Source: Lentisphaerota bacterium (GTDB taxonomy: Bacteria > Verrucomicrobiota > Kiritimatiellia > UBA8416 > VGWI01). From it: a stretch of 64,000 nt of DNA. Every line of letters begins with the position of its first letter. Position 1 is the stretch's first letter. This document shows positions 2 to 41,047 of this stretch, piece by piece. The notes under the pieces were generated by a model, which was not told where the DNA came from, did no database searches, and saw only the letters and a program-made list of their open reading frames with translations. A program made the translations under genes and the position numbers. The DNA lies in contig VGWI01000004.1 in NCBI GenBank assembly GCA_016873655.1, positions 160-64,159 on the forward strand, written 5' to 3'.

Positions 2-3000
2 GCGCCTGGTCCGGGTGAATTGGGCGGGAAGTTGTTCGTGGGGCCGGACGGCACGGAGGGGACATTCTACAGCGCAAGGAACAGCGATCTGCAGAACTCG
101 ACTGCGTTCAGCCGGATTGAGCGTTATCTGCAGTACAAGGTGTATATGATCGGGCAGAGCGACGGAAAGGAGACGCCCTATCTCGATTCGACCGGGGTGA
201 TCGGGACCAGAAGCGTTGCATTCGACAACACCCTCGGCGATTTCGCTGTGGGGGCGGGCCTGAGCGGGGTCGTCTTTGTGCCCGGATCCGAGGAACGCGG
301 TCGGCTGGTTCTGGCCAGGAATTCCAACGGCGGATTCAGGAAGGACGGCTACTACACATCGCGGACCTTCGATGCCGGAATCAGCGTGTTCTGGGACAAG
401 CTGAACTGGATCGGGCCTTCCGAACTGGCTGCCTCCTCGTCCATGCTTGGCCTGTGGCACGTCAACGGTGGATGGGCGGATGCGACCGGCAAGGGCAGGA
501 ACGGCCAGGCCCTGACAAACATGGCCTACTACTCGAAGGCCAAGCTTGGATCGCAGTCGGCGGTGTTTGACGGCGTCTCGACACGGGTATCGCTTCCATT
601 GCCGACGAACAGCATTGGCGCGGTGGAGTTCTGGGTGAACCCGGCCGGTGCGGACGGCGGCCTGATGGACTTCGGCGGCGGGCGCCAGTTCATGGTGCGC
701 GGGCGGATGGCGGCTGTGACGGGTTTCGGGTTCGCGGGACCGCTTGTGTATCTCAACGGCAGGCAGAATGCGAGGCTTCTTGAGCGCGGTTGGAACCACG
801 TTGCCGTCGTGTTCCCCAACGGCTTTGCGGTTTCATCGCCGATAGTTGTCGGGTATGCGGGAGGGCTGTGGTTCAGGGGGATGCTGGACGAGATAGCGAT
901 GTACTCGGTTGCCCTGGACGGCGGTGCGATCAAGTCTCATTTCCTGGCGGGAGGAGGCAGGGCCGCCGGGGCCGCGAAGTTCCAGGTGCGTGCCTCGAAC
1001 ACATTCCCAATCCCTGGCATAGTGCCCTTCGTGGGACCGGGCAACCTCCCGTCAGACTATTTCACAGCTTCCGGTGCGGCACTGCCATCCGAGGTGTGGG
1101 GTAAGCGGTATTTCCAGTACAGATCATTCCTGGAGGGCGATGGAGATGCGACTCCTCACGTGAATTCGGTCAGCATTGAGTACAGCGGCGCCGCTTCCGG
1201 AATCGAGACTGACGGTTCCGCGGCCCAACTCCTGCAGGGAGTGTTCTCCAACACGAAATGGTTGGGCACCGACCAGAGCCCATACGACATAGCGACTGTT
1301 CCGGGCCTTGTGAACATAGACAGTGTTGTTGAGGTGTCAATTGAGGGGCTGTGGCACATGGATGAGACGAACTGGGCTGCGGGTGCTTCAGTTCTGGACT
1401 CCTCCGGAAAGAACCGCAATGGCGACCCGCAGGGCGGGGCATCGCCGAGTCCCGCTGCGAAGGTGGGGACGGCCAGCGGGCTCTTCAACGGGTCGGGTCA
1501 GTATGTGATTCTTCCGTCCGCCGACCTTGCCGGCGATTTCACAGCCGGCGCATGGTTCAGGTCCACGGCAACAGCACGTTCGGCTGTCATGGTCAGGACA
1601 GACGGGGGGTTCATTCTGGAGATCAACGGGAACGGCAGTGCGGCTGTGGCGGGGGCGGCGGCCTTCATCGTCCAACTTCCGGGGAAACGCGCAGTGGCGA
1701 CCTCAGCCGCAGCCAGTTCGCTGAGTGACGGCGCTTGGCACCATATCGCGGGGATCAGGAAGGGCAGAGGGATCTATCTCTACATTGACGGCACACGGGT
1801 TGCATCCGCGTTGTTGGCGTCCGATTTCGGCGGGCTGGGAGTCGGGCAAATGGAGGTTGCGCGCAACCCGGAGACCCCGCCAGGTTACTTCGCCGGGAAC
1901 GTTGATGAAGTCATCCTCTATTCGAGGGCGCTTTCGGACGCGGAAATCGTCGAGAAGACGGCGGTTGGTTTCAACATAAGGAACCAGGTTACATTTGAAA
2001 GCACGGTCTATGATGCGGACGGGCCCGCGATCTGGGAGAGCATCGCGTGGGGCGAGAACGGGCCATTCGGCGACGCTCCGTCCGCTTCCGATCCTGACCT
2101 GATAGGGCTGTGGCGGCTGGATTCCGTCACGCCGGGAGGAGTCGCTGTTGATTCCTCCGCCGCTGCGCAGAACGGAGCGTACTCGGGCAGCGCCGCGGCT
2201 GGAGCGGGCCGGTTCAGCGGCTGCATGAGCCTTTCCGGCGCCGGCGGCGGGGTCACTGTAACCGGGTCCGCGACCCTTGAACCCGAGTTAGTGTCCATTT
2301 CGTTGTGGGTAAACATGACCGACGTTGACAGCCGGGCGCTTATTGAGAAGCGCTCAGGCGGCAACGGATATGCCATCTATACCGACGCTTCGGGTCGGCC
2401 CTCATTCTGGGTGAACGGGAGTTCGTGTACTTGGGCGGGGGGCATGCGGGCTTCGGAATGGACCCATGTTGCCGCTGTCTATGACGGGCAGAGGATCTAT
2501 CTTTATGTGAACGGGAAGCAGGTTGCGGACGGTCTTGCTTCCGGCGATTTCCTCGGAGGCAACCTGCTGATAGGGTCTTCATCATCCGGCTACCAGGGAT
2601 TCACCGGTTTGATTGACGAGGTGGCGGTCTACAAGCGAGCGTTTGTTCCGGAAGAGGCGGCGGATCACGCCAAGATGGGATTTGGGAACATCCGGATCCA
2701 GGCCAGGGCTGGGAACAGCCCGGACCTGTCCGGGGTTGCCTACATAGGCAGGGATGGAACAAGCGGGTCATTCTTTGACGACTCAAACGAGTCCTCGATG
2801 TTCGGCATTGTGCCGCTTGGTCAGTATTTTCAGTTCCGCTACGTCATGACGGTCGAGGACGGGTTGCTGGCCCCGATCTTCAGCGGGGCGGCGATAAAGC
2901 AGTCCGCCTACCCCACAGACAAGCCGTGGGTAGCCCCCGCAGTGGGGCAGGGGCAACTCTTCTATGGGAACCTGCTGGGATTCAACCAGAAGATGGGTAC

Positions 3001-6000
3001 AAACGACAACGATCGCGTGAGGTACCAGATATCAGGCGACGAGGGGGCAAACTGGTACTACTGGAGCGCTTCAAGCTGGAAGAAGTACAGCGTATCCGAT
3101 GGTGAGCCGTGGAATTTCGCAAACGACTACCTGACGACAAGCAACCGCATAGTGACGTTCTACCAGCAGTTATACGCTAAGTCCGGCGGTGTGTTCCGGT
3201 TCCGCGCGATGCTTCGGTCAAACGGCGACGACCAGGTAGCCCTCGATTCTGTCAAGATGGACTACTCTGAAGGCCGCCTTGTCGTTCTGGAGCCGAACGG
3301 GGCCGAAACGAACCAGCGGGCATGGCTGGTTGATTCGCCATACACGGTTAAATGGTCGTGGAGAGGCGTGGTGAGCAACAACCTGAGGCTCCAGTACTCG
3401 CGCGATGGCGGCTCCACGTGGAGTCTCATTGCCAACGGGATACCGAACACAGGTTCCTACTCAAGCTGGTTGACGCCGCCGGCCGCGTCGGAGCAGATGC
3501 TGGTGAAGATATCCGACAACAACAACTCCTCGATCTACGATCAGTCCGACTCCGTCTTTCATCTGAGCGATGCCTTCCAGATCAGGGCGCCCAACGGCGG
3601 CGAGGTCTGGTACAAGTCCGCAACCAACACGATCGTCTGGCGGTCGCCAGGCGCGGCGGCCGCGCGCGGCGCGCTCGTGGACATCCGGTATTCGCACGAC
3701 GGGGTTGATTTCTCACAGATAATCGCCCGCGGCGCTCCCAACGTGCAGGGCTCAAGCAGCAACACGTTCAGGTGGATGATCGAGCCCGGCGTCTTCCCGA
3801 TGCCGCTGCCGTCGGCGAGTGCGCGGATACGCGTTCACGCCTACGACAACACCAACCCGCAGTTCAACGGGCAGGATGACTCCGATCTCCCGTTCACGCT
3901 GGCCGGCATAACCGTCACGGCGCCTGTGCAGGGCGGCTACTACAACAACGGTTCCGACCTTACTCTGCAGTGGGTTTCCCGGCTTGGCGGGCCGAAGGTT
4001 GCGATGGACTTCAGCCGCGACAACGGCGTGACATGGCAGACCAACGTGCTGACGGATGTGGCGAATGTGGACGGGCAAAACACGTACGTGTGGTTCATCA
4101 ATGAGCTGCCGTCCGACACGGCAAGGGTGCGGATAAGGTCTCTTTCTGACAACAGGATATACGGCGTATCCGGCGTCTTCCAGCTTGCGGACGTGAGCGT
4201 TACGTCGCCGTCAGCCGGCGAGAACTGGGAACTGAGGACGCAGAAGACGATCAGGTGGGAGTCTGGCGGCGCGGGCAACCTTGTTGATCTGTACTACTCC
4301 TACGACGACGGGGTCACGTGGACCACGATCGCGTCAAACGTCTTCAATACGGCCAGCAACGAGTACGCGTGGACGGTCCAGCCCTATCCATCCGACAAGG
4401 CGAGGATAAGGGTCGTCTCCCATCTGGACAGGACCAACCTGCTTGATGTCTCGGAACGGTTCAACATTGCCGGTGTCAAGATCGAGTATCCGAACACAAA
4501 GGTGGTCTGGCCAAAGGGTGGGACGGATTCGATTCGCTGGTCATACAACCAGGCAGGTTCACAGGGGGCGATATACACTTCAACTGATGGGGGACTGACA
4601 TGGCAATTGCTCGGTAATCGCGGTCTTGGGAACCGATCCATCAACTGGCAGCCGACGCAGCCGACTGCCCGTGCCATGGCAAGGATAGTATCGCTGGACC
4701 CGCCGGGATGGGCCGTTGCCATGACAGACGACTCGGACGAGTTCTTCACGATAGGCGGCATCACAGTCAACGCACCGACGAACGCCCAGTTGTTCACCGT
4801 GGGCGAGCCGGGGCAGATATCGTGGACTTCAGCCGGTTCCGCCGATTCAGGCGGTGGCGAGTATGCAAGGCTGTACTACACGACCACAGGCGGGGCGACA
4901 TCCAACTTCATCGCCGAAGTCGGGAACAACGAGATTTACCCCGGCAACAACGTCTATACATGGAACATACCTGACACGGTGTCGCCGTCTCTGAACGCGC
5001 AGGTAATGATCAAGGGCGGTCCCTTCACCGGGTTCTCGCCTGTGTTTACGCTGAGGGGCATGCGGATAACCGCTCCGACCGACACATCCATCCTGGACAT
5101 CGGGAAAGTGTCGAAGATCACTTGGAGTTCGGCCGGGCTTGACGAGAACGCCAACGGGTATTTCTTCCTCTCGCTCGACGGCGGGGTGACGTTTGAGCCG
5201 GCGGCGATCAACGCGTCGCCGATCTATGTGGCGAGCGGTTTCTATGACTGGAACATTCCATCAAACTCAACGCCGAGCGTGAGGGCGGTTCTGAAGTTCG
5301 TAGTTCAGAATTCACCCAAACAGTCCGACATCAACTACCAGATCAAGAGCAGGCAGTTCGTCCTGCGCGGTCTGAAGATCAAGGAGCCGAAGACCGGCAG
5401 CATCTGGCGACACGGCAGCACGAACCTGATCCACCTGGTGGCTTCCCGGGCCGGCGACTTCGCGACGTTCTACTATTCATCTGACGGAACATCATACGAC
5501 ACCAAGCCCGGTAACGAAGTGCGCAAGAACTGGCCTCTCTCTGACGGCGACAGCTATGTTCCCTGGACGGTTGAGTTCAGTCGTCTCCCTTCGGCCAATG
5601 CGCGCCTGAAGGCTGTTTCGACGATAGCGACGACCTATTCGGAACCCTTTGCAGTCCACGGCGTGAAGGTCACGAGGCCCACATCGTCCAGCATCTGGGC
5701 TGCGGGAGAGACGAACATCGTGACGTGGACGGGTGTCGGGACGTCCGGATCATATGACGTGTTTGTGGAGAAGCCGGGCGGGCCTACGGTGCAGATCGGC
5801 GTCGGCGTGCCGGGCCCGACGGTGAACTGGCTGGTGGACGGTTCGGTGGTGGGCGAGGGAGTGGTGGTGCGCGTGCGCGACACTTCCGGGCAGTTCGTCG
5901 GCGTGTCGGCGCCGTTCCTGGTTGTTGCGCAACCGACCGTGATCGTTGTGAGCCCCGCATCGAACGACCTGTGGCGCGTTACCGACACCTACAGCGTGAC

Positions 6001-9000
6001 GTGGAGCAAGGGCGGAACGATGAGCAACATCTTCAGGGTGGCTTACTCCCCCTGGCCGTATACCGCAGAGTACGACATCTTCTCCGGGGCCGCCGCCTAT
6101 GATTCGGAGAACAACAGCTACAGCGTGCCGTGGACTGTCCCTGACAGGCTCGGGCTGACCAGGATAATCGTCGAGAACCTGGACAAGCCGGTGATTCGCG
6201 ACGAGTCGGATATCTTCTACATCGTCGGCAGGTTCCAGGTTCTCTTCCCGAACGGAGGGGAGACGAGCCTCTACGCACGGAAGCCCGCCACGGTCAGGTG
6301 GTACACTTGGGGCGGCGTGTCTTCGGTTAATCTCTTCTACTCGATAGACCCGCTCCATGCGGACGATTCGTGGAAGAAGATCAACTCCTCGCCGGTTCCG
6401 GTAACCGGCTACGGGACCGAACCTTCGACGTACACCTGGACCGTGGCAGATGTCGGGACTACGATCAGTTCGGTGCGCCTGCGCGTGGAGCAGGCTGACA
6501 TGGCCGGCGCGCTTGACGACTCCGACGCCGACTTTTCGATCAACTACTACACCATCGTCTGGAACGTTCTCGATCAGCAGAGCGGCGAGCACCTGAACAA
6601 CCTGGTCCTGAGCGAAAGCACGGGCACTTCGCAGTCCGACCTGACCTCGCCGGTGACCCGCAGGTACCCGTACGGCCGCTTTGACTCAATCTGGTCGCGG
6701 CTGTACTTCTACGACTATGTCAGTTTCAACTGGCTGTCCGAGCCTTCGCGCGAGATCACGATCATGATGAAGCGGTCTGACGTGGAGGCCGAGTACAGGG
6801 TCATGGCGAACATCACTTACGAGGGCGGCGCGAACGACACACTCTCGGCCTACGCGTGGCTCGAGAGGGCGGGGCGCGTGATGCTCGACCCGTCGGAGTG
6901 CACGATCCTCATCTACGACAAGAACGGCGTTTCGGTCACCAACCTGGTGAACGCGTTGCCGCAGCCGGAGACGGGCGTGTTCCAGTTCAAGTGGGACCAG
7001 GTAACAAGTGTGCTTGCAAAGGGCGAGACCTACTATGCCCGCGTTGACATCAAGTACTCCCGGGAGACGTTCTCATCCGTCATCACCTACACGCTGCGCA
7101 TCTCGGCCGACCAGGCCGCCATTGACGAGATTTCGGCGGCGCTGGCTGTGGCGGAGACCAACATCACCGGCCGGATCGGCGGGGTGAGCAACGTTGTCCA
7201 GAGTCTGTCGGATGCCCAGGCCATGTTCAGGGCGAGGGTCACGAACCAACTTGACTCCATCTATGTCGGCACGGCGGACATGCGCACGAACCTGTCGGCC
7301 TTTGTCGGGTTGGCGACAGGCAGCCTGGCCCGTATAGAGGGCAGTGTTGACGTGATACTGCCCGGCGTGACGAATATCCGCGCGAGGCTGGCGCCTATCG
7401 AGGAAAACCTGGTGGCAACGCTTGCGCGCATCCTGACGCGGCCCGATTCGGTGGCCTTCGGTTCCACCAACCGCATCCTCTACAAGACCAGGGCCGACGC
7501 TCAGAACGTGACAATATCCATACCCGAGCTCAATCCCCCGTACAACGCGCCGATGACGATGGTGATAGCGGGCATATACGAGAAGGTGCTGATCGCCGAC
7601 TGGGGGACCAACAGCTATCGGGTTGTCTGTTCCGACGACAGGTCCAGCGACAGCATAATACTCAACGTCACCGGCGGGACCCTTGGCGGCATGCCGGGCC
7701 TGTTGAGTTCGATGAGCCACAGCCTCTCTGAAGTCCGCAGCAACGTTACCGAGATGACGACGATCATCCAGGGAATAGAGGGGCTGGACAAGCTCGGGAG
7801 CATAGCCACCAATCTGAATCCGCTCATCGAAGCCCTCGGTTCCGTTCCGTGGGGCGCGCTTTCGAACGTGAGCGACGTGGCCAGCTACCTGCCGGACATC
7901 TACACGACGGTCACAAACACCGATTACGTTGTCCGGAGCATCCAGAACCTGACCAACATCACCGGGATCGCGGACCAGATAACAAACCTCCAATCCGTTG
8001 TCCGCAGCATGCAGGATCTGGCCGACCTGCAGACAAACGTGGCTCTCCTCGTGAACTCGCTTGGCGGAGCCGACCTGTCCCAGCTTGGCAACACAATGTC
8101 CAACGTCGTCAGGGCGGTGGAGGACCTGGGTTCACTCAAGAGCGTGCAGGACCAGATAACCAACCTGACTGCCGCGGTGAGGAGCCTTGATGAACTGGCG
8201 GTTTTGCAGACGAACGTGGCCGCGCTTGCGCGGACGATGGTCGGGGTCAATTTCCAGGACTTCGGCGCCCAGATGACGAACATGGTTGCGGCGATCCAGA
8301 GCATGGGCGAGTTGCGCGACATTCAGGGGCAGATAACAAACCTGGCGTCGGTGGTTCGCGGCATGCAGGACCTGGCGGTGTTGCAGACGAACGTGGCTGC
8401 GCTCGTAACAACGATGAGCGGGGTGAACCTGTCGGTGTTCGGCCGGCAGATGACAAACCTGACGGCCGCGATTCAGAGCATGGGCGATCTGTCGAACGTG
8501 CAGGCCCAGATAACGAACCTGGTCTCCGTGGTGCGGGGGCTGGATGAGCTTGCCGGTTTGCAGACGAATGTCGCGGCCCTGGCGAGGACGATGGTGGGGG
8601 TGGACTTCGACGGTTTTGGCGTCCAGATGACGAACATGGTTGCGGCAATCCAGAGCATGGGCGAGTTGCGCGACATTCAGGGCCAGATCACAAACTTGGC
8701 GTCGGTGGTTCGCGGCATGCAGGACCTGGCGGTGTTGCAGACCAACGTTTCCGCGCTGGTTACCACGATGGGCGGCGTGAACCTCACGGTGTTCGGCCGG
8801 CAGATGACGAACCTTACGGCGGCAATCCAGAGCATGGGCGACTTGTCGAACGTGCAGTCCCAGATAACGAACCTGGTGTCTGTCGTGGAGGGGCTTGATC
8901 AGCTCGCCGCTCTGCAGACCAACGTCGCTTCGCTTGTGAGTTCCATGGGGGCCACCGACCTGGGCGTTCTCGGCCGTCAGATCACCAACATGACTGCGGC

Positions 9001-10282: not shown

Positions 10283-10359
10283 CGGCCGATCACGCCGTGC
10301 ATCGGGGCTTTTTCAATTGCGGTGTCGCCATGCGTGCCGGTAGCATCCTTCACAGTCCA

Positions 10360-11676: not shown

Positions 11677-11779
11677 GGCCGTTTCTCAGCAGTCTTGCCG
11701 CTGCCGCGAGCCGTACTTCCATCCGTCGGTCTTCCGGCGCGGGGTCTTCACAGTGTCTTTTTGACGGGGGAGATGTGGT

Positions 11780-14920: not shown

Positions 14921-14944
14921 ACCGTCTGCGCCTGGAGGGCGGGC

Positions 14945-15160
14945 ATGGACAAGTTCGTAATATTTCTGGTGATGTTCGTGACGATTATCGGCCCATCGGC
15001 CGTGATAGCGGCCATCGGGTACGCGAGCATACGGGCGCTGGGGCGCAACCCCTCGGCTGCAAACAAGATACTGCAGGCCATGATTGTCGCCCTGGTATTT
15101 GCCGAGGCGATAGCGGTGGTTGCTTTGCTCATACTGTTCCAGTTGTTTGCTGGAACATAG
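14945..15160 (+). CDS. atpE: Fo subunit c-like proteolipid (71 aa)
   Basis: Two hydrophobic helices, RNP loop, conserved carboxylate in VFAEAIA; GGAGG RBS. Confidence 0.88.
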   Translation: MDKFVIFLVMFVTIIGPSAVIAAIGYASIRALGRNPSAANKILQAMIVALVFAEAIAVVALLILFQLFAGT

Positions 15161-15213
15161 GTGAATAGGCAGCCCGGGCGAACGGCCGGGGCCGCCGCAT
15201 GGAGGCGGGGAGC

Positions 15214-15960: not shown

Positions 15961-16013
15961 CATGGCGCTGCCGGCCGTCAGGCGGCCGTTGATTTCGGTT
16001 TGAGGCATGCCGG

Positions 16014-16949: not shown

Positions 16950-18383
<1,434 letters not shown>

Positions 18384-18424
18384 GCTTTTCTCCGGTTGCG
18401 TGACCGGGGCCGCGGCATCTGAAT

Positions 18425-20059
18425 ATGAACAAGCTGGGACAACGCCTTGAGGCGGATGGGCTGCTCTCCGCGGAGCGTTTCGAGGAGGCGGCGGCACGGG
18501 CCAAGGAAAGCCGGCGGCCGCTTCCTGACGTGCTCCGGGATGACAGCTACGTTGCCGAGGGGCCTCTGCTCAGCGCTCTCGGCAAGGTCTACGGGCTTCA
18601 GGTCGTTGATCTTGACGACGACACGCCGGTTGACCAGTCCGCCGTGAGATCCATCCCGCCGAGGCTCGCAACCCACTACTGCGCCATGCCGATGAAACTG
18701 GAAGACGGGGTCATAACGCTGGCGGTCTCCAGCCTTTCCGACATGGCTGTCGTTGATGATCTTGAGACCAACCTGGGCTTGAGGGTCGATCGGGTTCTTG
18801 CCACCCGGGCTGGCATCCAGCGTGCGATAAGGCGGCACTACGGAGTCGGCGCAGGCACGGTCGAACGCATACTCGGAGAGGACAGGCCGGGCGAGGCGTC
18901 CCATATGGAGACGTCGCATGATCTGGAACTCATGGCCGAGGATGCGTCGGTTGTCCGCCTTGTCAACCAGATCCTGCAGGACGCCATACGGGACAGGGCA
19001 ACCGACATACACCTGGAAAGCTACAGAGACGAGATGCTCTGTCGCAGGCGGATAGACGGCGTCCTGCAGGAGACGAGTTTGCCGCGAAGCATCCGGCAGC
19101 TCTATCCTGCCATGGTGTCCCGGATCAAGCTGATGTCCGGACTCGACATAGTCGAAAGACGTCTGCCCCAGGACGGGAGAGCCCGTGTCAACATGGGGCG
19201 TGAAGAGTTCGACCTGCGGGTCTCCATAGTCCCGGCAGTGCACGGGGAGGACATCGTCATAAGGGTCCTGCCGACACGGTCGATGCTCAACCTGGGCGAT
19301 CTCGGGTTTTCCGGGGCGCACAGGGCGGAGTTGGAGAAGTACATAGCGATGCCGCACGGCATCGTCTTTGTGACCGGTCCGACTGGAAGCGGGAAGAGCA
19401 CCACTCTCTACGCATGCCTCAACCGGCTGAACACTCGCGACCACAAAATTATCACCATCGAGGACCCAGTCGAATATGAAGTGAGAGGGGTAACGCAGAC
19501 GCAGGTCAATCCGAAGATAGGTCTCACCTTCGCCCGGGCGCTGAGAAGCATGTTGAGACACGATCCGGACGTCATGATGGTTGGCGAGGTGCGTGACCGT
19601 GAAACGGCGGATATTGCAGTACAGACGGCCATGACGGGACACCTGGTGCTCAGCACTCTCCACACGAACGATGCTGCCGGGGCTGCGGTGCGTCTGATGG
19701 ATATGGGCGTTGATCCTTACCTGATAACTTCGACGGTTCTGGTGTTCATCGCGCAGCGGTTGGTACGGGTGATCTGCCCGGAGTGCAGGGAGGCGGTTCG
19801 GGAAGCGGGGATTACGAGGTATCGTGGAGCCGGCTGCAAGACATGCGGACGGAGCGGGTACTTCGGCCGTGCTGCTGTTGCCGAGTTTCTCCCGATGCTT
19901 CCGGCCATCGCGGGCCTGATCATGGGCAAGGCATCCGCACGTGAAATACGAGCGAAGGCGGATGAGCTTGGGATGCAGACTCTTCTGCAGGACGGTCTGC
20001 GGAAGGTTGAGGACGGTATCACGACCGAGCAGGAGGTCTTCCGCGTTATCGTAGCGTAG
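18425..20059 (+). CDS. gspE: Type II secretion/type IV pilus assembly ATPase (GspE/PulE/PilB family)
   Basis: ATDIHLE, ERRLPQDGR, GPTGSGKSTT, TIEDPVEY, LRHDPDVMMVGEVRD, TGHLVLSTLHTND, CPEC...CKTC zinc motif. Confidence 0.95.
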   Translation: MNKLGQRLEADGLLSAERFEEAAARAKESRRPLPDVLRDDSYVAEGPLLSALGKVYGLQVVDLDDDTPVDQSAVRSIPPRLATHYCAMPMKLEDGVITLAVSSLSDMAVVDDLETNLGLRVDRVLATRAGIQRAIRRHYGVGAGTVERILGEDRPGEASHMETSHDLELMAEDASVVRLVNQILQDAIRDRATDIHLESYRDEMLCRRRIDGVLQETSLPRSIRQLYPAMVSRIKLMSGLDIVERRLPQDGRARVNMGREEFDLRVSIVPAVHGEDIVIRVLPTRSMLNLGDLGFSGAHRAELEKYIAMPHGIVFVTGPTGSGKSTTLYACLNRLNTRDHKIITIEDPVEYEVRGVTQTQVNPKIGLTFARALRSMLRHDPDVMMVGEVRDRETADIAVQTAMTGHLVLSTLHTNDAAGAAVRLMDMGVDPYLITSTVLVFIAQRLVRVICPECREAVREAGITRYRGAGCKTCGRSGYFGRAAVAEFLPMLPAIAGLIMGKASAREIRAKADELGMQTLLQDGLRKVEDGITTEQEVFRVIVA

Positions 20060-20082
20060 GACCGAGGTTCCGGCAGGCTGCC

Positions 20083-21297
20083 ATGCCGCACTACAGATAC
20101 ACAGCCAAGGATGGTCCGGACCGGATTGTTTCAGGATCCGTCAGGGCTGAATCCAGACAGGACGCCGTAGCGAAGGTTGACGCCATGGGGTACAGTCCCG
20201 TATCCGTCGCCGAGGCGGCGGAGGATGGCGGGCCGGCCCGGGACACGGCGGCGGCCGGGCGCCGGCCTTCGCGGAGCAGCGTTACTCTCTTCACCCGGCA
20301 GCTTGCGAGCCTTCTGCGGTCAGGTGTTCCGATTCTCAGGGCGCTGCGCACCATATCGGAACAGAGCGAGGATGCCCGGATGAAGGCTGTAGTCCTGGCG
20401 CTGGAGTCCAGTGTCCGCGACGGCAGAAGCATTTCGGATGCGATGTCGGAGCATGGCAGATCGTTCTCCGACTTCTACGTCAACATGGTCAGGACAGGTG
20501 AAGGCGGCGGCGTGCTGGATGTCGTGCTCTCGCGCCTGGCCGACGCCAGGGAGGCCGAGGATGACCTTCGAAGGCATGTTCAGTCGGCGTTGGCGTATCC
20601 TCTCCTTGTTGCCGCAGCCGGCTGTGTCACTGTGTTTGTTCTTCTGGCATTCTTCCTGCCGAGAATGGCCGAACTGTTCAGCAGCTATCGCCAGCTTCCC
20701 TTTGCCACGCGCGCGTTGATAGCCGTGAGCGGCGCGGTTTCCCGATGGTGGCCGGTGGTCTTGCTGCTGGCCGTCTTCGTGTTCGCCGTGCTCAAGAGGC
20801 TTGCATCGGTTGACAGGGGGCGGATGGTGATGGACAGGTTGAAGCTGAGGGTGCCCTTCTTCGGTCACGTGATCAGGGACTCCGACGTGGCCAGGTTCGC
20901 CCGCACTCTGGCGCTGTTGCTTGACAGCGGGGTAAAGGTGGACAAGGCGATGGACCTGTGCGCGGGCACCGTGCGCAACGCTGTTCTTGAGGCCGGGGTT
21001 CGCGGCGCGCGTGACGCGACCGTCAGAAGGGGGCTTCCTTTCTCAGACGGCATTCGCGGAGCCGAAGGCTTTCCTCTTTTTGTCGCCAACATGGCTGCCG
21101 TTGGCGAGGAGGGCGGACGGCTCGACGAAGCACTCCTGGAGGTGGCAAGTTACTACGAGAAAAGGGTCGCTCAGCAGACCCGTATCGCCGCAAGTCTCAT
21201 CGAGCCGGCAATGATACTTGCAGTCGGAGCCGTTGTGGGTTTCATAGTGGCCGCGATGTTGCTGCCGGTGTTCGAGATAGGAACGACGCTGAAATAG
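20083..21297 (+). CDS. gspF: Type II secretion system inner-membrane platform protein F (GspF/PilC family)
   Basis: FTRQLASLLRSGVPILRAL, GEGGG.LD.VL.RLA, ALAYP, GEEGGRLDE.L, LIEP...LLPVF; three TM segments. Confidence 0.95.
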   Translation: MPHYRYTAKDGPDRIVSGSVRAESRQDAVAKVDAMGYSPVSVAEAAEDGGPARDTAAAGRRPSRSSVTLFTRQLASLLRSGVPILRALRTISEQSEDARMKAVVLALESSVRDGRSISDAMSEHGRSFSDFYVNMVRTGEGGGVLDVVLSRLADAREAEDDLRRHVQSALAYPLLVAAAGCVTVFVLLAFFLPRMAELFSSYRQLPFATRALIAVSGAVSRWWPVVLLLAVFVFAVLKRLASVDRGRMVMDRLKLRVPFFGHVIRDSDVARFARTLALLLDSGVKVDKAMDLCAGTVRNAVLEAGVRGARDATVRRGLPFSDGIRGAEGFPLFVANMAAVGEEGGRLDEALLEVASYYEKRVAQQTRIAASLIEPAMILAVGAVVGFIVAAMLLPVFEIGTTLK

Positions 21298-21383
21298 GCG
21301 TTCAACAGGCTTTGGGGTTTACTTGGCGTGCACAGCCGCGTAGATTCAGGCAGGGGCAGGCGCGTAGATGCGGGGAGGCAGCG

Positions 21384-21797
21384 ATGACTCAGTCGAGGCC
21401 GGATTCAGGTTTCACACTGATCGAAATACTCGTGGTGGTCATCATTCTCGCTGCTCTGGCTGGTATGGTGCTCCCGCGGGTGATCCCGAGGGCAGACGAG
21501 GCCAGGCGCGACATCGCGCGCGGGGAGATAGCCGGGATATCGACTGCCCTGAACTTCTTCCGGCTGGACGTGGGGCGGTATCCAAGCACGGAGGAGGGTC
21601 TCGCGGCCCTTATGGCGTCCCCGTCAGGCAGCAGCCGGTGGAAGGGCCCGTACCTGGAGAAGCGGCCTGACGATCCTTGGAGCAAGCCCTACGCGTACAG
21701 GTATCCGGGGTCCCATAACCCTTCGGGTTTCGATGTGTGGTCTCTCGGACCGGACGGGCAGGAAGCCACTCAGGACGATGTCGGCAACTGGGAGTGA
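21384..21797 (+). CDS. gspG: Major pseudopilin GspG
   Basis: G|FTLIE prepilin motif, F.LDVGRYPSTEEGL.AL, WKGPYL, DPW..PY.Y..PG, SLGPDG...DD.GNW; GGAGG RBS. Confidence 0.93.
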   Translation: MTQSRPDSGFTLIEILVVVIILAALAGMVLPRVIPRADEARRDIARGEIAGISTALNFFRLDVGRYPSTEEGLAALMASPSGSSRWKGPYLEKRPDDPWSKPYAYRYPGSHNPSGFDVWSLGPDGQEATQDDVGNWE

Positions 21798-22285
21798 CCG
21801 GCGCAACAGTGACCGTGACACTGACTTCGGGACGGGCGAGTATCCTCTCATTTCATGCCTTTCGCGGGGCCGTGAGCCCTGCGTTCAGGGCGTCGGCCGG
21901 GCGAAATGGCTCCGGTTTCACGCTTGTGGAAGTTCTTGTTGCCGTGGCGGTTGTTTCGGTGGGGCTTGTTCTGGTTCTTCGCGCCATGAACGCTTCCCTT
22001 GCGGCGATGGAAGCCGTAAGGAGTTCCTCAATCGCCGGACATCTGACCGTCGAACGTGCTGGAGCTCTGCGAATTGCGGCATCGAGCGGCACAAGCATTT
22101 CCCTGATGTCCGGATCTGAAGACATCGAATCCACTCTCGACGGTCTGAAGTGGCGGCGCCAGACGGATCTGGAGACCGAGATAAACGGCGGGTCCAACGC
22201 GCTGTTTGTGGTCAGAGTAAGGCTGGGACGTGCGGACTCGGACAGGGAATACGAGAGGCGCTTCTATGTCGGCGGAGCGAAATAG
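21794..22285 (+). CDS. Minor pseudopilin (GspI-like), start uncertain
   Basis: G|FTLVEVLVAVAVV N-methylation motif; GTGA overlap with the gspG stop (alternative GTG at 21872). Confidence 0.75.
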   Translation: MTGATVTVTLTSGRASILSFHAFRGAVSPAFRASAGRNGSGFTLVEVLVAVAVVSVGLVLVLRAMNASLAAMEAVRSSSIAGHLTVERAGALRIAASSGTSISLMSGSEDIESTLDGLKWRRQTDLETEINGGSNALFVVRVRLGRADSDREYERRFYVGGAK

Positions 22286-22853
22286 CACGTTCCTGAGTCA
22301 ATCGCAGGGCTTCACTCTTGTAGAAGTTCTTGTGGCGGTTTGCATAGTCGGAGTTCTCGGCGGGGCGATTGGCGCGGGGATCGTGGCGGGTGTGAACGTG
22401 TGGGACAGAGCCAGAACTGAAACTCTGCTTGCCACCGATGTGTTTCCTCGACTCGCCGTCGTGGAGAATGACGTGGCCAACATGGTGCAATTCTCGGAAC
22501 TTCCGTTCGCAGGGGCGCCTGACAGCATAGTTTTCCCTCTTCTGGTCTCGACGGGAGAAGGTTTGGACGGTCCATCCCTTGGCGGGGTCAGCTACAGGTA
22601 CGACCGGGTCAGGGGGATTCTCCGGCGGAGAATCTGGAGTATGCCTGGGCAGGAACCCGAAGAAGGCGCAACCGAGGCCGTATTCACCGGGATCGACTCC
22701 TGCACTTTCGAGTACTACGCCCTTTCAGGTGCGGAATACATGTGGAAACAGGCCACCACCAACACGCCGCTTGCGGTCAGGTTAACGATCTTCCCGGCGG
22801 CGCTCGGGACGAGTCTGGAGAAGGTGATGCCCGTGCCGGCAGCCAGGCGCTGA
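22266..22853 (+). CDS. Minor pseudopilin (GspJ-like)
   Basis: G|FTLVEVLVAVCIV motif; C-terminal P.AVRLTI pattern typical of GspJ. Confidence 0.8.
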   Translation: MSAERNSTFLSQSQGFTLVEVLVAVCIVGVLGGAIGAGIVAGVNVWDRARTETLLATDVFPRLAVVENDVANMVQFSELPFAGAPDSIVFPLLVSTGEGLDGPSLGGVSYRYDRVRGILRRRIWSMPGQEPEEGATEAVFTGIDSCTFEYYALSGAEYMWKQATTNTPLAVRLTIFPAALGTSLEKVMPVPAARR

Positions 22854-22870
22854 TGGGCGGGGGTGGACAC

Positions 22871-23614
22871 ATGAGCGAATGTGCAAATAGGGGCGGCAGC
22901 GTGCTTGTCTTGGCGCTGTGGGCGGTCTTCCTGATCGTCTCGCTGGCCATTGCGGCAGGGAATGTGGTCTCGTCCGCGCTGGGCGCCGCCGGCAGGCTGC
23001 GCAGCAGGCAGGTTTCCCGCGAGCTTGCGGAGTCGGCCGTGGAGCGGGCATGGGGCGCGATCGCGGTTTCCACGAATGACGCGACGCTGCAGGATATGCC
23101 CGGTCTGTTCATGGACAACGGAGAGTTGGGCGGAGGGAAGTTCTCCGTGCAGCATCTTGCGGTCGATCCCACGGGTGCGGTGGTTACCAACCACGGAGTC
23201 GCGGCGATGTCTCAGAGATTGAACCTGAACAGGGCAGGCAAGGGCGAACTTGCCGCTTTGCTGCGGGAGAAAGGTGAGTTGACGGAAGTGGAGGCGTCGT
23301 CACTGGCTGACGTGATTATCGAGTGCAGGTCAGGGAGGAATGGCAGGTTGACAGTTTTGCATGGAACTGGGTACGCTCCCAACAACAGATACTGCTGCCG
23401 CACAAAGCGTTTTCAGTTCGTGGAAGAGTTGCTGCTGCTTGATGAGGTGGCATCAAGGCCAGGCCTCTATTCGGTTATCGCGCCGTTTCTGACAGTGTTC
23501 GGCAAGGGATGCTACGGGGGAACGGCCGTAGGGGTGTCCGAAGACGGCGACGTGACTCGTATTTCGTTTGTCGTGGATCGCGCCGGCAGAAGGCTCTATT
23601 GGCATGAATACTGA
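22871..23614 (+). CDS. Minor pseudopilin (GspK-like)
   Basis: RGG|SVLVLALW (no Glu5, as in GspK/PilX), LAESAVE.A, RLNLN.A, F..VEELLL, PFLTVFG. Confidence 0.8.
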   Translation: MSECANRGGSVLVLALWAVFLIVSLAIAAGNVVSSALGAAGRLRSRQVSRELAESAVERAWGAIAVSTNDATLQDMPGLFMDNGELGGGKFSVQHLAVDPTGAVVTNHGVAAMSQRLNLNRAGKGELAALLREKGELTEVEASSLADVIIECRSGRNGRLTVLHGTGYAPNNRYCCRTKRFQFVEELLLLDEVASRPGLYSVIAPFLTVFGKGCYGGTAVGVSEDGDVTRISFVVDRAGRRLYWHEY

Positions 23615-23689
23615 TTCTGGCTCGTCGGCAAGCCGGCTTGCATGGCATTGCTGAGAGTTGGGTCGGTGTGGGGAATTGGCCGAAGACAG

Positions 23690-25099
23690 ATGAAGAAGAC
23701 CGTCACCGGGGTCCTTGAAATAGGGCCCGACACACTGAAGCTCGCCAGGGTTGAGAAGGGCAGGGCGGGGCAAGAAATCCGCGCCGCCCGTGTTGTGCCG
23801 CTTGCCGGGGCTGATGACGCAGCGGGGCGGGCCAGGAGTGCTTTCAGGGATCTCCGGCTCAGCGGACACAGGCTCATGGGCGCTGTCTCTCGACAGATAG
23901 TCAACGTGAGACTCCTCGAACTGCCGTCCACCGACCGAAGCGAAATATCCGACATGGTGGATCTGCAGATAGGGAAGCACACCCCGTATTCAAAGGATGA
24001 GATAGTCTCCGGATACAAAGTCATATGCGGCTCACGGGAGGGGTACAGCCGCGTCATGGTTGCGATAGTCCAGTTGCCGATTCTGAGGCAGCGATACCAC
24101 TTTCTGGACGAGGCCGGCATAGACCCGGACTCGATGACAGTCAGTACCGAGGGGCTCCTCGCCCTTTGCGCGCGGGCGGTCAAGGCTGGCGAGCCGGGGA
24201 CGCTTACGGCGGTTCTGGATGTTGACACGGTTCACTCAGAGCTGCTGGTGCTTTCAGGTTCTGACCCTGTTTTCAACCGGGTTATCATGGCGGGGGCGGG
24301 GGCGCCGGGCGCGGAGGACTTTCGTGCGCGTGTCGCGCTTGAGATGCAGCGTTCCATAGAGGCAAGCCAGGGCGAAGTGCCCGGACGGGCATTGTCGCGT
24401 GTGCTGCTGACGGGCGCGGGCGCCCATGATAAGGAACTGGCTAAAGTGATCGGCGAGCGGCTCGGAGTGAGGTGTGAGGGTTTGGACCTGCTTGACGGGC
24501 GCGGAGGTCCGGCCGTAAAGGACGCTGCTTCGAATGCATCCTTCAGCGCTGTCGCAGGTTTGGCCGAGATTGAAGGCGGGCCGGCATTCGAGCTTGCCCC
24601 GGACACTGTGAGGGCGAAGCGATCTCTGGCCGCAAAGGCCCGAGCTCTTGCCGCGATGGCCGTCCTTGCGGCCTGGGCACTGGCTTCGTTTTCGGTCTAC
24701 TGTGTTGTCAGTTGGATGCTGGCCGGATCCCGTGCTGCAGCGGTTTCGGAGGAGATGGCTGCGTTGGAGCCCGACGTGCGCAGGTTGGAGCGTATGAGGG
24801 AGATTGTTTCTCTTGTCATGGCGAGGCAGGGCGATGCCGGCATGCCTGTAGCTCTTCTTGCCGTGATACAGGGAGCGATTCCGGACGAGGTCCGTGTATC
24901 GTCCCTGGATATGAATCTTCCCGGGGAAAGCGTTCAGATACAGGCCAATGCGGCAAACACCAGACAGATAAGGGAGTTTGAAGAAGCCCTGCGGGCCTCC
25001 AATCTCTTTTCGGCGGTCAGGGAGAACAGGACGTCGATGGACCAGGGATCCCGGCGATGGGTGTTCGATCTGTCGTGCGATCTGGAGGTGCCTCGGTGA
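23690..25099 (+). CDS. PilM-like actin-fold domain fused to a PilN/GspL-like periplasmic domain
   Basis: N-terminal GVLEIG...KLA, LELPS.D..EI..MV.LQ....PY, VLLTGAGA; one TM helix followed by I...IPDEV.V..L domain. Confidence 0.78.
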   Translation: MKKTVTGVLEIGPDTLKLARVEKGRAGQEIRAARVVPLAGADDAAGRARSAFRDLRLSGHRLMGAVSRQIVNVRLLELPSTDRSEISDMVDLQIGKHTPYSKDEIVSGYKVICGSREGYSRVMVAIVQLPILRQRYHFLDEAGIDPDSMTVSTEGLLALCARAVKAGEPGTLTAVLDVDTVHSELLVLSGSDPVFNRVIMAGAGAPGAEDFRARVALEMQRSIEASQGEVPGRALSRVLLTGAGAHDKELAKVIGERLGVRCEGLDLLDGRGGPAVKDAASNASFSAVAGLAEIEGGPAFELAPDTVRAKRSLAAKARALAAMAVLAAWALASFSVYCVVSWMLAGSRAAAVSEEMAALEPDVRRLERMREIVSLVMARQGDAGMPVALLAVIQGAIPDEVRVSSLDMNLPGESVQIQANAANTRQIREFEEALRASNLFSAVRENRTSMDQGSRRWVFDLSCDLEVPR

Positions 25100-25656
25100 T
25101 TCTCGATCGTTTCAGGCAGCTTGGCGGGCGTGAGCAGGTGGCGATAGCCGCGGCGTGTCTCGCGGCCCTGTTCTGGATGGCAGACGTTCTGGTCTTCGGA
25201 CCTTTGTGGAAGCGCACATCCGATCTGAAGGCGCTCGCAGAAGTGGAGCGGGGGAAACTTGAGTACGCCAGGACAGTGCTGGCTGGCGCGGAAGGCACCG
25301 CCGAAGCGTATGACGAGGTCCGGGAGATGGTGGGGAGAGCCCTGTCGCCTGACGAGGCTACTGCACAGATGGTCGGCGAGATTGATGAAATCGCCGCTTC
25401 CACAGGCGTAGCGATTTCCCGCAGGCAGCCACGATCGCCCCGCAAGTTTTCGTACTGCGAGGAGCATGCGTTGGATGTTGCTGATTTTACGGCAACGGGC
25501 GGACAGTTGGCCGCTTTTCTCCACGGCATTCAGCAGTCGCGTGGTCTGCTGCGCGTTGCCCACATGAAAGTGTCCGTCGAAAAGGGAGAGAGCGGCCGTC
25601 TGAAGGGTGCCATGGTGATCACCAAGCTGGTTGCACCCGAAAATCCAGGCGGATGA
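25096..25656 (+). CDS. PilO/GspM-like assembly platform protein
   Basis: L..REQ + TM helix, coiled coil, L..FL..I...GLLRV..M.V; GTGA overlap with upstream stop and GGAGG RBS. Confidence 0.7.
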   Translation: MILDRFRQLGGREQVAIAAACLAALFWMADVLVFGPLWKRTSDLKALAEVERGKLEYARTVLAGAEGTAEAYDEVREMVGRALSPDEATAQMVGEIDEIAASTGVAISRRQPRSPRKFSYCEEHALDVADFTATGGQLAAFLHGIQQSRGLLRVAHMKVSVEKGESGRLKGAMVITKLVAPENPGG

Positions 25657-25714
25657 CCATCGGGGAACGCGTGGCAGTCGCGCCGTACTGTCCGCATGCG
25701 GGGTCAGGATCGAA

Positions 25715-27142
25715 ATGGACGACAGAAAGCCCCTTGACGCCGAGTTCATCAAGGACCCGGGAAGAAGCGCTGAGCCGTCTGCCGCCGGTTCCGGGTCGCT
25801 TCCCAGGCTCATGGATCCGGTCATCACCATGGGCGCCGTGCAGCGTTATGTCGAACAGGAGCGCATGCGGAGCCGGCGACTGTTCGTTTGGACTGGGACC
25901 GTATTCCTGTTCATACTGCTGTTCGTTCTCACAACTTTCATAGCGATCGGCCTGTTCGTTGTCAGGCATACGAAGCGAAGCCGCGAGGAGATAGATGAGG
26001 TGCGGTTACAGACGGCGGTTTACTCCGCCGAGGTCCTGTCGCTCTCGAACGTCGTGGTTCAGGCTGACGGCAGATCTCAGCAACTGGGCAGCGAGTTGCG
26101 GGAGAGGGAAGCCTCGAGGCATCGCGACAGGGGACTTCTGCAGTCGGACCTGAGGCGCTTCAGCGCGTGGGTCAATGAGAGGGATGCCGCCGGATCGGCT
26201 GTGCTGCAGTCAGTTATCGGCAGAATGGAGAGGCTCGATGCCGAGGCAGTAGCGCGGCAGGAAGAGGTGGCATCCCTGAGGGAGCAGAATGCAGCGTTGC
26301 TTCTTGCTGTTGCCCAAGGAGGGGGGAGCGCCGTCTCTGTCGCGAACGCTCCGACAGGCGATCGTGCCGATCTGGCTGCCGGTCCCGTAACGGATGTCTC
26401 GGCGTCCGCAGTCAATATGGACGGAACTCTGCAGGAAACGGCGCGGACGCATGACGGTGCTGCCTCTGCCCTGCGGTCACCATCCTACTCCACGGCAAAA
26501 GGCACTGTTTCGGTGGTCACCTTCCCCAACGGAGACAGGTACGAAGGCGGGTTGAAGGGCGGACTGTTTGAGGGTTGGGGGGTTTACTACCGCGCGAACG
26601 GCGATCGTTACGAGGGCGAATTCCGGGGCGACATGAAGAACGGCAACGGTACCATCCACTATGCGAACGGCGACATCTACACAGGCCAGTTCGAGGACGA
26701 CCGTAAACAGGGGCGGGGGAGCTACACTTACAGGGACGGCAACAGGTATGTCGGTGATTTCTTTGGAGATGCTCTCCACGGGAGCGGGATCATGGTGCAC
26801 GCGAATGGAAACCAGTACACCGGTGAGTTCAAGAACGGCGCGAAGCACGGCAGGGGTACGTTTACCTACGGGAACGGAGATTCTTACACAGGACAGTTTG
26901 CAGAAGATGCAAGAAACGGCAGCGGAACGTACGTATTTGCGAACGGAGACAAGTACGTCGGCGAGTTCAAGTCAGACCGCAGGGAGGGCCTTGGCCGGTA
27001 CATCTATGCCAACGGGGAAGAGTACGAGGGTGAGTTCTTGAACGGCATGAAGCACGGTCAAGGCGTATGTCGGTACCCTAACGGTCAGGAAATCAAGGTG
27101 TTGTGGAAGAACGACCGCTTCGTCGGCGTTGTCGAGAACTGA
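25715..27142 (+). CDS. Single-TM coiled-coil protein with C-terminal MORN repeats
   Basis: TM LFVWTGTVFLFILLFVLTTFIAIGLFVV; about 8 copies of the 23-aa YxGxFxxxxxxGxGxxxxxNG repeat. Confidence 0.88.
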   Translation: MDDRKPLDAEFIKDPGRSAEPSAAGSGSLPRLMDPVITMGAVQRYVEQERMRSRRLFVWTGTVFLFILLFVLTTFIAIGLFVVRHTKRSREEIDEVRLQTAVYSAEVLSLSNVVVQADGRSQQLGSELREREASRHRDRGLLQSDLRRFSAWVNERDAAGSAVLQSVIGRMERLDAEAVARQEEVASLREQNAALLLAVAQGGGSAVSVANAPTGDRADLAAGPVTDVSASAVNMDGTLQETARTHDGAASALRSPSYSTAKGTVSVVTFPNGDRYEGGLKGGLFEGWGVYYRANGDRYEGEFRGDMKNGNGTIHYANGDIYTGQFEDDRKQGRGSYTYRDGNRYVGDFFGDALHGSGIMVHANGNQYTGEFKNGAKHGRGTFTYGNGDSYTGQFAEDARNGSGTYVFANGDKYVGEFKSDRREGLGRYIYANGEEYEGEFLNGMKHGQGVCRYPNGQEIKVLWKNDRFVGVVEN

Positions 27143-27378
27143 TGACGCGGCATGCTGCCGATCGGAGTGCAAAGTGGTGAAATGCAGCCGATTAGCCGCT
27201 GGATTCCTGTGTGGGCCAGCTGTGGTGTCAGGATGTCGCGAATGCCTCGGAATCGATTCGGGATCCGTTTTGGGTTGACTTGCGGCGTAGCTACGTGCGA
27301 CACTAGTGCCGTGATGAGGGATGGAAAGAGGCATTGAGACGATCAAGAAAACAGCGTGTTCGGGATGCAGGTGAGACC

Positions 27379-29750: not shown

Positions 29751-29776
29751 GTTGGCAAGCCGTGTTTGCGGGAGAT

Positions 29777-40042: not shown

Positions 40043-40050
40043 GGTCATAC

Positions 40051-41034: not shown

Positions 41035-41047
41035 TCCGGGAGTAAGG

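Follow-up and report, generated by a model that had tools for sequence, protein, structure and literature searches.

What does an F-type ATPase do if its gene cluster lacks subunit a, carries two alpha subunits and directly precedes the genes of a secretion/pilus-like apparatus? This question is raised by a gene block at positions 2-27142 of a 64,000-nucleotide (nt) stretch of DNA from a Lentisphaerota bacterium. The whole stretch is referred to in the following as the window (G000:C4:160-64159, i.e., contig C4 of genome G000) and belongs to an assembly of 3.08 Mb in 243 contigs, which is 94 % complete and has a G+C content of 60 %. F-type ATPases serve as the standard textbook example of chemiosmotic coupling. 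Gene content, conserved linkage and phylogenetic position of the cluster suggest a different use here: with a probability of roughly 0.6 it encodes an accessory ATP-hydrolysing mechanical module without ion coupling, which would serve the secretion/pilus-like apparatus and the neighbouring protein p459. If true, a channel-less rotor with c-ring, stalks and head would represent a reuse for mechanical work in Gram-negative envelopes and not only in Mycoplasma, and it would bear on the handling of very large surface proteins.

Organization of the gene block

The block comprises 18 co-directional genes on the + strand, as determined by open reading frame (ORF) calling and by comparison with Pfam and NCBIfam. 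Its first half encodes, in this order, a large LamG protein, p459, alpha1, alpha2, epsilon, c, b-delta, gamma and beta; its second half GspE, GspF, GspG, a GspI-like and a GspJ-like protein, p290, a GspL-like protein, GspM and a MORN protein. Intergenic distances from the large gene to MORN range from -112 to +103 nt, and MORN, the final gene of the block, is followed by a gap of 191 nt. The order of the block is far beyond chance, since the same order recurs in 80 fetched related loci. A preliminary description of the region, made from the letters alone, had already placed all named genes correctly on the + strand (ORFs, Pfam, NCBIfam) and had given the distances between atpD and gspE (41 nt) and between gspE and gspF (23 nt) exactly. 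Co-directionality likewise holds, but the 17 genes counted there become 18, since the I/J/K-like block consists of three ORFs; the products labelled PilM/N and PilO are better described by a GspL architecture and as GspM (PF04612; NF040576), respectively. The proposed absence of subunit a and presence of two alphas are confirmed by Pfam and NCBIfam.

Catalytic head

The gene for alpha1 (11780-13243, +) encodes an F1 alpha subunit with arginine finger (PF00006, E-value 7.6e-70), which passes the equivalog cut-off of TIGR00962 (516.8 vs. 484.45 bits). The motif SVSRIG, and with it the Arg, is kept in 62/62 members of the alpha1 group. Alpha2 (13209-14696, +), the gene of which overlaps that of alpha1 by 35 nt, is a paralogous alpha with 44-46 % identity to alpha1 and fails the same model (466.3 bits vs. 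cut-off 484.45). Alignment to a solved structure revealed SLSIVG in alpha2 where the solved alpha has SVSRVG, the Arg of which we take to be the catalytic arginine finger. Ile occupies this position in 48/48 alpha2 orthologues, and P-loops are retained in the alpha1 and alpha2 groups alike. The fixed loss of the finger in alpha2 amounts to a natural experiment on asymmetric F1 heads.

The beta subunit (16980-18383, +) is catalytic and intact, passing TIGR01039 with 534.4 bits (cut-off 462.85). Among solved structures the closest to it is a bacterial F1 beta (464 bits), and the best solved relatives overall are bacterial F1 subunits. Walker A, the catalytic stretch GERxREG and the Asp of Walker B are retained in 80/80 betas. 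Gamma (16014-16949, +) is divergent, matching PF00231 (1.3e-29) and staying below the cut-off of TIGR01146 (78.9 vs. 194.45 bits). Epsilon (14693-14920, +) comprises 75 amino acids (aa) and consists of the N-terminal beta-sandwich alone (PF02823, 4.1e-11), the match spanning profile positions 1-78 of 80 and the equivalog score remaining below cut-off (36.6 vs. 67.25 bits). The family median of 76 aa (n = 67, range 44-100) implies that epsilon is generally a beta-sandwich without C-terminal domain, i.e., without the part that inhibits ATP hydrolysis.

Membrane part

The c subunit (14945-15160, +) is a 71-aa helical hairpin with two transmembrane (TM) helices, in which the Glu is present. No Pfam model matches it at E <= 0.01, including PF00137, on which the housekeeping c of the same genome scores 67.6 bits, and it obtains only weak matches to NCBIfam c models (<=24.1 bits vs. 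cut-offs of 85-135). At the same time no protein of the block is better conserved than c, which shows 76-96 % identity in loci of the Planctomycetes-Verrucomicrobia-Chlamydiae (PVC) group. The carboxylate column of 69 c genes holds E in 52, Q in 10, M in 5, G in 1 and A in 1, so the carboxylate is replaced in 17/69 family genes, across several lineages. Two tandem c genes were observed in L068 and L070; the first c of L068 has Gly at the carboxylate position and the second keeps Glu.

The b-delta fusion (15199-15960, +) is composed of a TM helix (residues 12-30), a coiled coil and an OSCP-like C-terminus. It matches PF00213 (1.8e-10) at residues 88-239 and, weakly, NCBIfam delta and b models, with the delta part staying below the equivalog cut-off (33.5 vs. 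57.5 bits). A subunit a (PF00119) was not found on contig C4, the cluster included, where gaps of <=103 nt leave no room and no ORF for it. None was seen in the clusters of L068 and L084 either, nor was a PF00119 match found in or near any cluster examined.

Conservation of the linkage

Relatives were collected by a beta scan with one genome per species, in which 105 of 233 pattern matches were confirmed and the best 80 kept. Taxa of loci are those of the record titles, and linkage counts take in only loci with enough flank. Betas with 69-85 % identity originate from loci titled Kiritimatiellae, Lentisphaerae, Victivallales and Verrucomicrobia, those with 54-63 % identity from loci titled Omnitrophota, Planctomycetes and Ratteibacteria. 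Set against the 46 % identity to the housekeeping beta, the values of 69-85 % point to strong selection. One locus (L033) is titled as a metagenome-assembled genome of Victivallis vadensis, so a cultivable carrier may exist.

gspE follows beta within 1.5 kb in 69/71 loci, and gspF (60/65), gspG (52/57) and the GspL-like gene (44/47) accompany it. Linkage to gspEFG is hence conserved, the opposite of what the preliminary description had named as speaking against its reading. Within the ATPase part, gamma (73/73) and an alpha (58/58) occur throughout, and b-delta (66/71), c (65/69) and epsilon (64/68) in most loci; p459 lies upstream in 43/46. The MORN gene is present in 29/44 loci, every counted locus titled Omnitrophota or Planctomycetes being a miss. 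Only one alpha each was found in 14 loci titled Omnitrophota, Planctomycetes, Ratteibacteria or uncultured bacterium and in three Kiritimatiellales loci.

Among 301 evenly sampled genomes of the phylum, orthologues of beta (>=70 % identity) and of GspE (57-62 %) occur in the same 7, adjacent to each other wherever contigs allow. A further genome, G173, matches both less well, and the remaining GspE matches are <=49 % identical. A distribution as patchy as this (7/301), together with scores of gamma, epsilon, c and delta far below the family cut-offs, would be expected of a decaying or regulatory remnant, the linkage of which reflects the shared ancestry of one mobile island and not a joint function. 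All frames of the block are intact, however, and betas that are 54-85 % identical over loci titled as several phyla retain their catalytic motifs in 80/80 cases. Gene order and adjacency are kept in 69/71 loci at identities down to 54 %, and the Ile of alpha2, fixed in 48/48, indicates selection rather than decay, which renders the remnant explanation highly improbable.

Two loci (L079, L080) are reduced to b-delta, alpha, gamma and beta; tblastn found no match to c, epsilon or gspE in them. In L080 (3218-11383; titled Ratteibacteria) these four genes directly follow, in this order, genes for a T2SSC-like protein, a secretin and a coiled-coil TPR protein; a p459 match is absent there, and an IS200-like transposase is encoded downstream. 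Such reduced sets, which keep the head and b-delta without c or epsilon behind T2SSC-like, secretin and TPR genes, could also be understood in terms of an export or unfolding ATPase resembling FliI-FliJ of type III export instead of a rotary motor; its head would activate or load an export gate, or pass on the large substrate, with c and b-delta as mere membrane anchors. F1-like ATPases do serve type III secretion systems (T3SS), weak matches to T3SS_ATPase_C and to FliI/SctN were obtained for the alphas and beta, and the dead interface of alpha2 (48/48) fits a non-processive switch more readily than a motor. The FliI/SctN models, however, reach only ~150-180 bits as compared to 466-534 bits for F1 alpha/beta models, and the parts that couple the head to a ring are kept, namely the N-terminal domain of epsilon in 64/68 loci and c, better conserved than any other product of the block (76-96 % identity among PVC loci), in 65/69. 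An export ATPase of this kind is accordingly considered unlikely.

Phylogeny of the alpha subunits

An alpha tree of 61 rows, rooted on two betas, was calculated with IQ-TREE (quick, LG+C20 PMSF); P0138, P0061 and P0086 (long or unplaced rows) were left out of it, and 25/70 representatives were kept. The linked alphas and all alpha2 form one clade of 33 rows with support of 100 in the Shimodaira-Hasegawa-like approximate likelihood ratio test (SH-aLRT) and a branch length of 0.53. Outside of it are the housekeeping alphas of G000, G143 and G158 and 20/25 unnamed representatives. The same clade was obtained with FastTree from 125 rows, including three wrong-frame 'housekeeping' rows that were left out of the IQ-TREE analysis. 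Alpha2 constitutes one clade (100), as does PVC alpha1 (100), and the branching order of the four sub-clades of the linked-alpha clade is without resolution. Alphas titled Omnitrophota (L068, L073, L075, L081, L084, L086) share the clade with alpha1 and alpha2 of the window. The single-alpha Kiritimatiellales L056 and L066 nest within alpha1 (98), which indicates secondary loss of alpha2.

Other ATPases of the genome and its relatives

PF00006 matches were detected at ten places in the genome of the window. A housekeeping set on contig C2 includes an alpha and a beta with 41-43 % and 46 % identity, respectively, to those of the window, and a gamma located between them. The sole PF00119 match of the genome (C13:24635-25270) is followed by its own c gene (atpB-atpE), and gene sets of V/A-type ATPases are present on C16 and C49/C178. 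Two findings that, according to the preliminary description, would have pointed to an ordinary synthase did thus not materialize: the cluster does not hold the only atp genes of the genome, given the housekeeping set on C2, atpB-atpE on C13 and the V/A-type genes, and it does not branch within the housekeeping F-ATPases, given the separate alpha clade (SH-aLRT 100).

All five cluster-bearing relatives possess alpha1, alpha2 and a third, housekeeping alpha, and the single PF00119 match adjoins the latter in 4/5 of them. In G260, which is 93 % complete and belongs to the same order as the genome of the window, the linked beta and GspE are 76 % and 60 % identical to those of the window; neither a PF00119 subunit a nor a housekeeping beta was found at this completeness of 93 %, and G260 may rely on other ATPases for energy conservation. 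Judging from gene content, the cluster is not the ATP synthase of the cell, because a separate housekeeping set exists and the single atpB goes with it.

An ion-translocating ATPase or synthase could nevertheless be formed with a channel partner that escapes recognition, be it the housekeeping AtpB, the TM helix of p459 or b-delta, or GspF. Retention of the c Glu in 52/69 genes, the window included, passing of the NCBIfam F0F1 ATP synthase equivalogs by beta and alpha1, and the presence of a housekeeping atpB in the genome agree with this. Yet the carboxylate has been lost in 17/69 c genes over several lineages (the second c of L068 keeps Glu), clusters examined have no PF00119 match in them or nearby, and the single atpB always stands with housekeeping genes. 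G260 moreover carries the cluster with no atpB found at 93 % completeness, and the c of the window misses PF00137 at E <= 0.01, on which the housekeeping c obtains 67.6 bits. In view of this, ion translocation by the cluster seems quite unlikely.

Proposed function

That the cluster does not encode an energy-conserving synthase is well supported by its predicted proteins, because subunit a is lacking, the c carboxylate has been lost in 17/69 genes and epsilon is short. The preliminary description had gone further in proposing a dedicated ATP-hydrolysing rotary motor for the giant protein; its non-synthase part stands, and rotation on behalf of the giant protein is retained here as a conditional proposal. 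The accessory mechanical module is preferred because the parts for hydrolysis and ring coupling are conserved, those for ion flow are absent or dispensable and the inhibitory part of epsilon is gone. The alpha1/alpha2/beta head would hydrolyse ATP, and hydrolysis would turn, or at least cycle, gamma-epsilon and the c-ring against the b-delta stalk. With subunit a missing, this movement would be coupled to mechanical work, the probable recipients of which are the GspF/L/M platform, p459 and, by way of these, the large protein. Alpha2 would silence the catalytic site it borders and thereby render the head asymmetric; for the two-alpha lineages this suggests a device that is asymmetric and perhaps works in steps. 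Direction of hydrolysis, rotation and the partner receiving the work are in each case predicted from the genes.

Several points weigh against this reading. The c Glu is kept in 52/69 genes, including that of the window, and leaves room for an ion-linked role, and the lack of c in L079 and L080 means that the c-ring is not indispensable to every member. An alpha2 without finger should cripple three-site rotary catalysis and is a poor fit for a fast continuous motor. Machines of this type are normally driven by GspE, which leaves the contribution of a second ATPase unexplained. Finally, neither a secretin (GspD) nor GspC was found in positions 2-31676 of the window or on contig C4, which starts inside the large gene, and the eight secretin matches of the genome are all located off this contig.

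A more specific and rather doubtful extension of the mechanical module would be a new class of envelope motor, in which p459 forms a periplasmic shaft or cage that is turned by the c-ring of a channel-less, ATP-driven F-type rotor. The single conserved C-terminal helix of p459 might then sit on or in the c-ring in the way of the accessory helices carried by V-ATPase rings, and the motor could move, extrude or tension the LamG adhesin in concert with the pseudopilus, with the asymmetry of alpha2 giving the rotor a defined resting position. Such a device would be the ATP-powered counterpart of the GldLM/SprB gliding-secretion machinery, the GldLM-PorLM motor of which is driven by the proton gradient and not by ATP. 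The analogy to GldLM-PorLM/SprB is confined to the triad of rotary motor, secretion machine and very large adhesin, as the proteins are unrelated.

Relation to known systems

Clusters of this kind are already in print for Omnitrophota, as the preliminary description had correctly indicated. According to the accessible part of Seymour et al. 2023 (PMC10066038), genes for a non-respiratory F-type ATPase stand next to type 4a pilus (T4aP) clusters in many Omnitrophota, in 56/111 Velamenicoccia species and with both sets within 10 kb on 57/66 contigs; giant ORFs are common in those genomes, and the alpha clusters with Mycoplasma types 2/3. The same part of that paper does not mention Kiritimatiell-, Lentisphaer-, subunit a or a c-ring. 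T2SS-like loci beside giant genes were described by West-Roberts et al. 2023 (bioRxiv 10.1101/2023.11.21.568195), in the accessible part of which no F-type ATPase is mentioned. The two-alpha form of the PVC group was not found in literature searches. With respect to novelty, the kind itself is therefore printed, though uncharacterised, and the PVC host, the duplicated and crippled alpha and the MORN partner appear to be new.

The Omnitrophota loci resemble the present block in having an F-type ATPase near pilus or secretion genes (gspE is located 41 nt after beta here). The loci titled Omnitrophota in the present collection also share with it an alpha clade distinct from respiratory alphas and the genes for p459, epsilon, c, b-delta, gamma, beta and gspE. 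Differences exist in several respects, since the host here is a lake-water PVC bacterium with nearest loci titled Kiritimatiellae or Lentisphaerae, possesses two alphas, one of them finger-less, as compared to a single alpha in Omnitrophota-titled loci, and has another gene order in a block that ends with a MORN protein. Moreover, the apparatus is termed T4aP in the paper, whereas GspG passes its equivalog here and the order is E-F-G-I-J-K-L-M. For Omnitrophota, alpha/beta were reported from 125/176 genomes and gamma from only 30/176 in a 2026 preprint, the latter as would be predicted from a gamma as divergent as the one described here.

As in Mycoplasma types 2/3, an F1-derived ATPase appears to have been recruited off energy conservation, and the solved beta of the gliding G1-ATPase (9io5_A) is matched by the beta of the window with 341.7 bits. 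The F1-like clusters of Mycoplasma are not known to include c, epsilon and b-delta, which are kept in the present block. Scores on the Mycoplasma exception models of NCBIfam (NF045858, NF045863, NF045934, NF045936) remain far below cut-off (MMOB1670, 415.2 vs. 850; MMOB1660, 387.5 vs. 600; MSC_0618, 386.2 vs. 570; MSC_0619, 293.4 vs. 520), and canonical F1 models score higher (beta 534, alpha1 517).

N-ATPases are likewise encoded by a second F-type operon of rearranged order beside the housekeeping one. Their order is atpDCQRBEFAG, and they retain subunit a and an ion-binding c. The order alpha1-alpha2-epsilon-c-b/delta-gamma-beta without a found here is different, as noted in the preliminary description. 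The corresponding NCBIfam models (TIGR03305, TIGR03324, TIGR03321, TIGR03323) are failed by beta (491.2 vs. 752), alpha1 and alpha2 (466.6 and 473.9 vs. 750.5), b (42.8 vs. 224.7) and gamma (24.8 vs. 282.35).

With canonical F1Fo the cluster shares equivalog-level beta and alpha1 and homologues of gamma, epsilon, c, b and delta. It departs from it by the missing subunit a, the two alphas, an epsilon without C-terminal domain, the fusion of b and delta, a c carboxylate that is dispensable in the family, the separate alpha clade and the location inside a secretion operon. Since beta and alpha1 pass models named 'F0F1 ATP synthase', genomes with such clusters are scored with respiratory genes that are perhaps not used as such.

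The second half of the block resembles a type II secretion system (T2SS) in that GspE, GspF, GspG and the I-, J-, L- and M-like genes follow the usual order and GspG passes its equivalog. It differs by the absence from the block of GspC, GspD, GspH and prepilin peptidase, the region upstream of the window being unseen, by a GspE and a GspF below their equivalogs (Pfam T2SSE and T2SSF pass) and by the F-type ATPase upstream of gspE.

Secretion-like genes

The GspE-type assembly ATPase (18425-20059, +) is characterized by PF00437 (1.7e-128) and an N-domain of MshEN type (PF05157), and scores below the equivalogs TIGR02533 (538.2 vs. 630.25) and PilB (520.8 vs. 675.65). Residues 3-143 of its N-terminus (18425-18850) match the region of NfrB that binds cyclic di-GMP (c-di-GMP) with an E-value of 7.9e-10, and an MshE-related c-di-GMP motif model gives 19.3 bits, below its cut-off of 38. 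The N-domain is a lead to control by c-di-GMP, and nothing more. Other contigs of the genome hold its 8 secretin matches and at least 8 further GspE-like genes with 30-45 % identity.

The platform protein GspF (20083-21297, +) matches PF00482 (5.2e-60) in two stretches and TIGR02120 with 338.1 bits, below 424. The major pseudopilin GspG (21312-21797, +) reaches 145.5 bits on TIGR01710 (cut-off 88.85) and matches PF08334 (5.6e-34). It is followed by minor pseudopilins. The GspI-like one (21737-22285, +) has its N_methyl motif at residues 56-81, scores 32 bits on TIGR01707 (below 44) and probably starts later than its ORF. The GspJ-like one (22230-22853, +) has an N_methyl motif and weak matches to PF11612 (T2SSJ) and TIGR01711. 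p290 (22742-23614, +) occupies the position of GspK and has an N-terminal TM helix; matches to Pfam or NCBIfam were not obtained for it, and it is kept in relatives at 25-36 % identity. The GspL-like protein (23642-25099, +) combines a PilM-like cytoplasmic domain, a TM helix (338-356) and a PilN-like periplasmic part, with weak matches to PF11104, PF05137, TIGR01175 and the Amuc_1101 family. The GspM-like protein (25057-25656, +) matches PF04612 weakly and NF040576 with 37 bits (cut-off 60).

Large protein, p459 and MORN-repeat protein

The first gene of the block (2-10282, +) encodes a large LamG protein of secreted or surface type with C-terminal helical repeats and a conserved end motif. 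Laminin_G_3 is matched in two stretches (1e-51) and Kre9/BNR weakly (Pfam); the TM scan yielded no C-terminal TM helix. As the frame is open to base 1 of the contig, the gene is cut at its 5' end and comprises at least 3479 codons. In G301 the homologue is complete; counted from its first ATG it spans 3247 codons, and its N-terminus resembles a signal peptide. Genes similar to the large gene are located upstream of p459 in 21/31 loci (tblastn), and in 20/29 loci a long ORF (at least 846 codons) directly upstream of p459 is open at the locus edge, making the large gene a frequent, not universal, neighbour. On contig C6 of G301 (L105 4641-8361; L019 genome), a secretin and a TPR protein are encoded ~13.5 kb upstream of the 3247-codon homologue; between secretin and large gene are genes for a two-component system, an ABC/Wzt transporter, a sulfotransferase, a methyltransferase and a glycosyltransferase.

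p459 (10297-11676, +) begins with a signal peptide and ends in a TM helix followed by a short basic tail (TM scan). By its predicted features it is a conserved periplasmic partner anchored in the inner membrane and without known family, matches to Pfam or NCBIfam being absent. The AlphaFold2 model (pLDDT 88, pTM 0.75) shows a unit of beta-sandwich and three-helix bundle that occurs twice, ahead of the TM helix. Searched as a whole against the PDB with Foldseek, it found no match at E <= 0.001. Structural relatives proposed by VIA-align wide were generic three-helix bundles with Z <=10.4, within the helical noise range, and the match to PorLM (7sat_B, Z 8.6) is of the same generic kind and within the noise range for helical bundles. 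The first beta-sandwich alone (pLDDT 90) gave a best Foldseek E-value of 0.097, with CBM3b and mannosidase sandwiches, and is uninformative. Look-alikes of p459 in the atlas belong to unnamed clusters, with Omnitrophota as the commonest phylum. Complex prediction, run without controls, for p459 (48-422) and the last 380 residues of the large protein scored 0.00, 0.38 and 0.01 (mark 0.32). Co-variation between the c carboxylate and an Arg at the end of the p459 TM helix was considered and rejected, since the Omnitrophota group with Q in c lacks this Arg, but it is retained in PVC loci that have Q or M.

The p459 homologue is 677-737 aa long in L068, L070, L072, L073 and L078 (titled Omnitrophota or Planctomycetales), and that of L068 (2713-7391) visibly ends in a cytoplasmic domain of GGDEF type. 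The MORN-repeat protein (25631-27142, +) at the end of the block matches PF02493 (1.5e-45) and has a TM helix at residues 93-111.

Transcription signals and neighbouring genes

Positions 14600-20100 of the window occur in 10 DNA datasets, of which nine are lake-water or freshwater metagenomes and one a sediment metagenome; with respect to co-transcription, no RNA dataset is listed with this section. A scan of positions 9800-29700 for promoters and terminators detected 1 promoter-like site (shuffles, 4.7) and 22 terminator-like sites (shuffles, 13.9), none of them convincing, and operon boundaries are not given by it. A terminator-like hairpin at 15972-15988 in the 53-nt gap between b-delta and gamma has 7 pairs, 6 of them G-C, and a T-rich tail, and may serve as an attenuator or as a site of RNA processing.

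Downstream of the block, genes for the unassigned proteins p454, p358 and p334 (27334-30550), with signal or TM N-termini, precede the housekeeping gene for YchF at 30618. p334 has weak matches to PEP-CTERM/flocculation PepA. Paralogues of this trio with 25-30 % identity are located at about 38500-41800, ~11 kb further downstream, and p454-like genes were found after gspM in L029 and L032.

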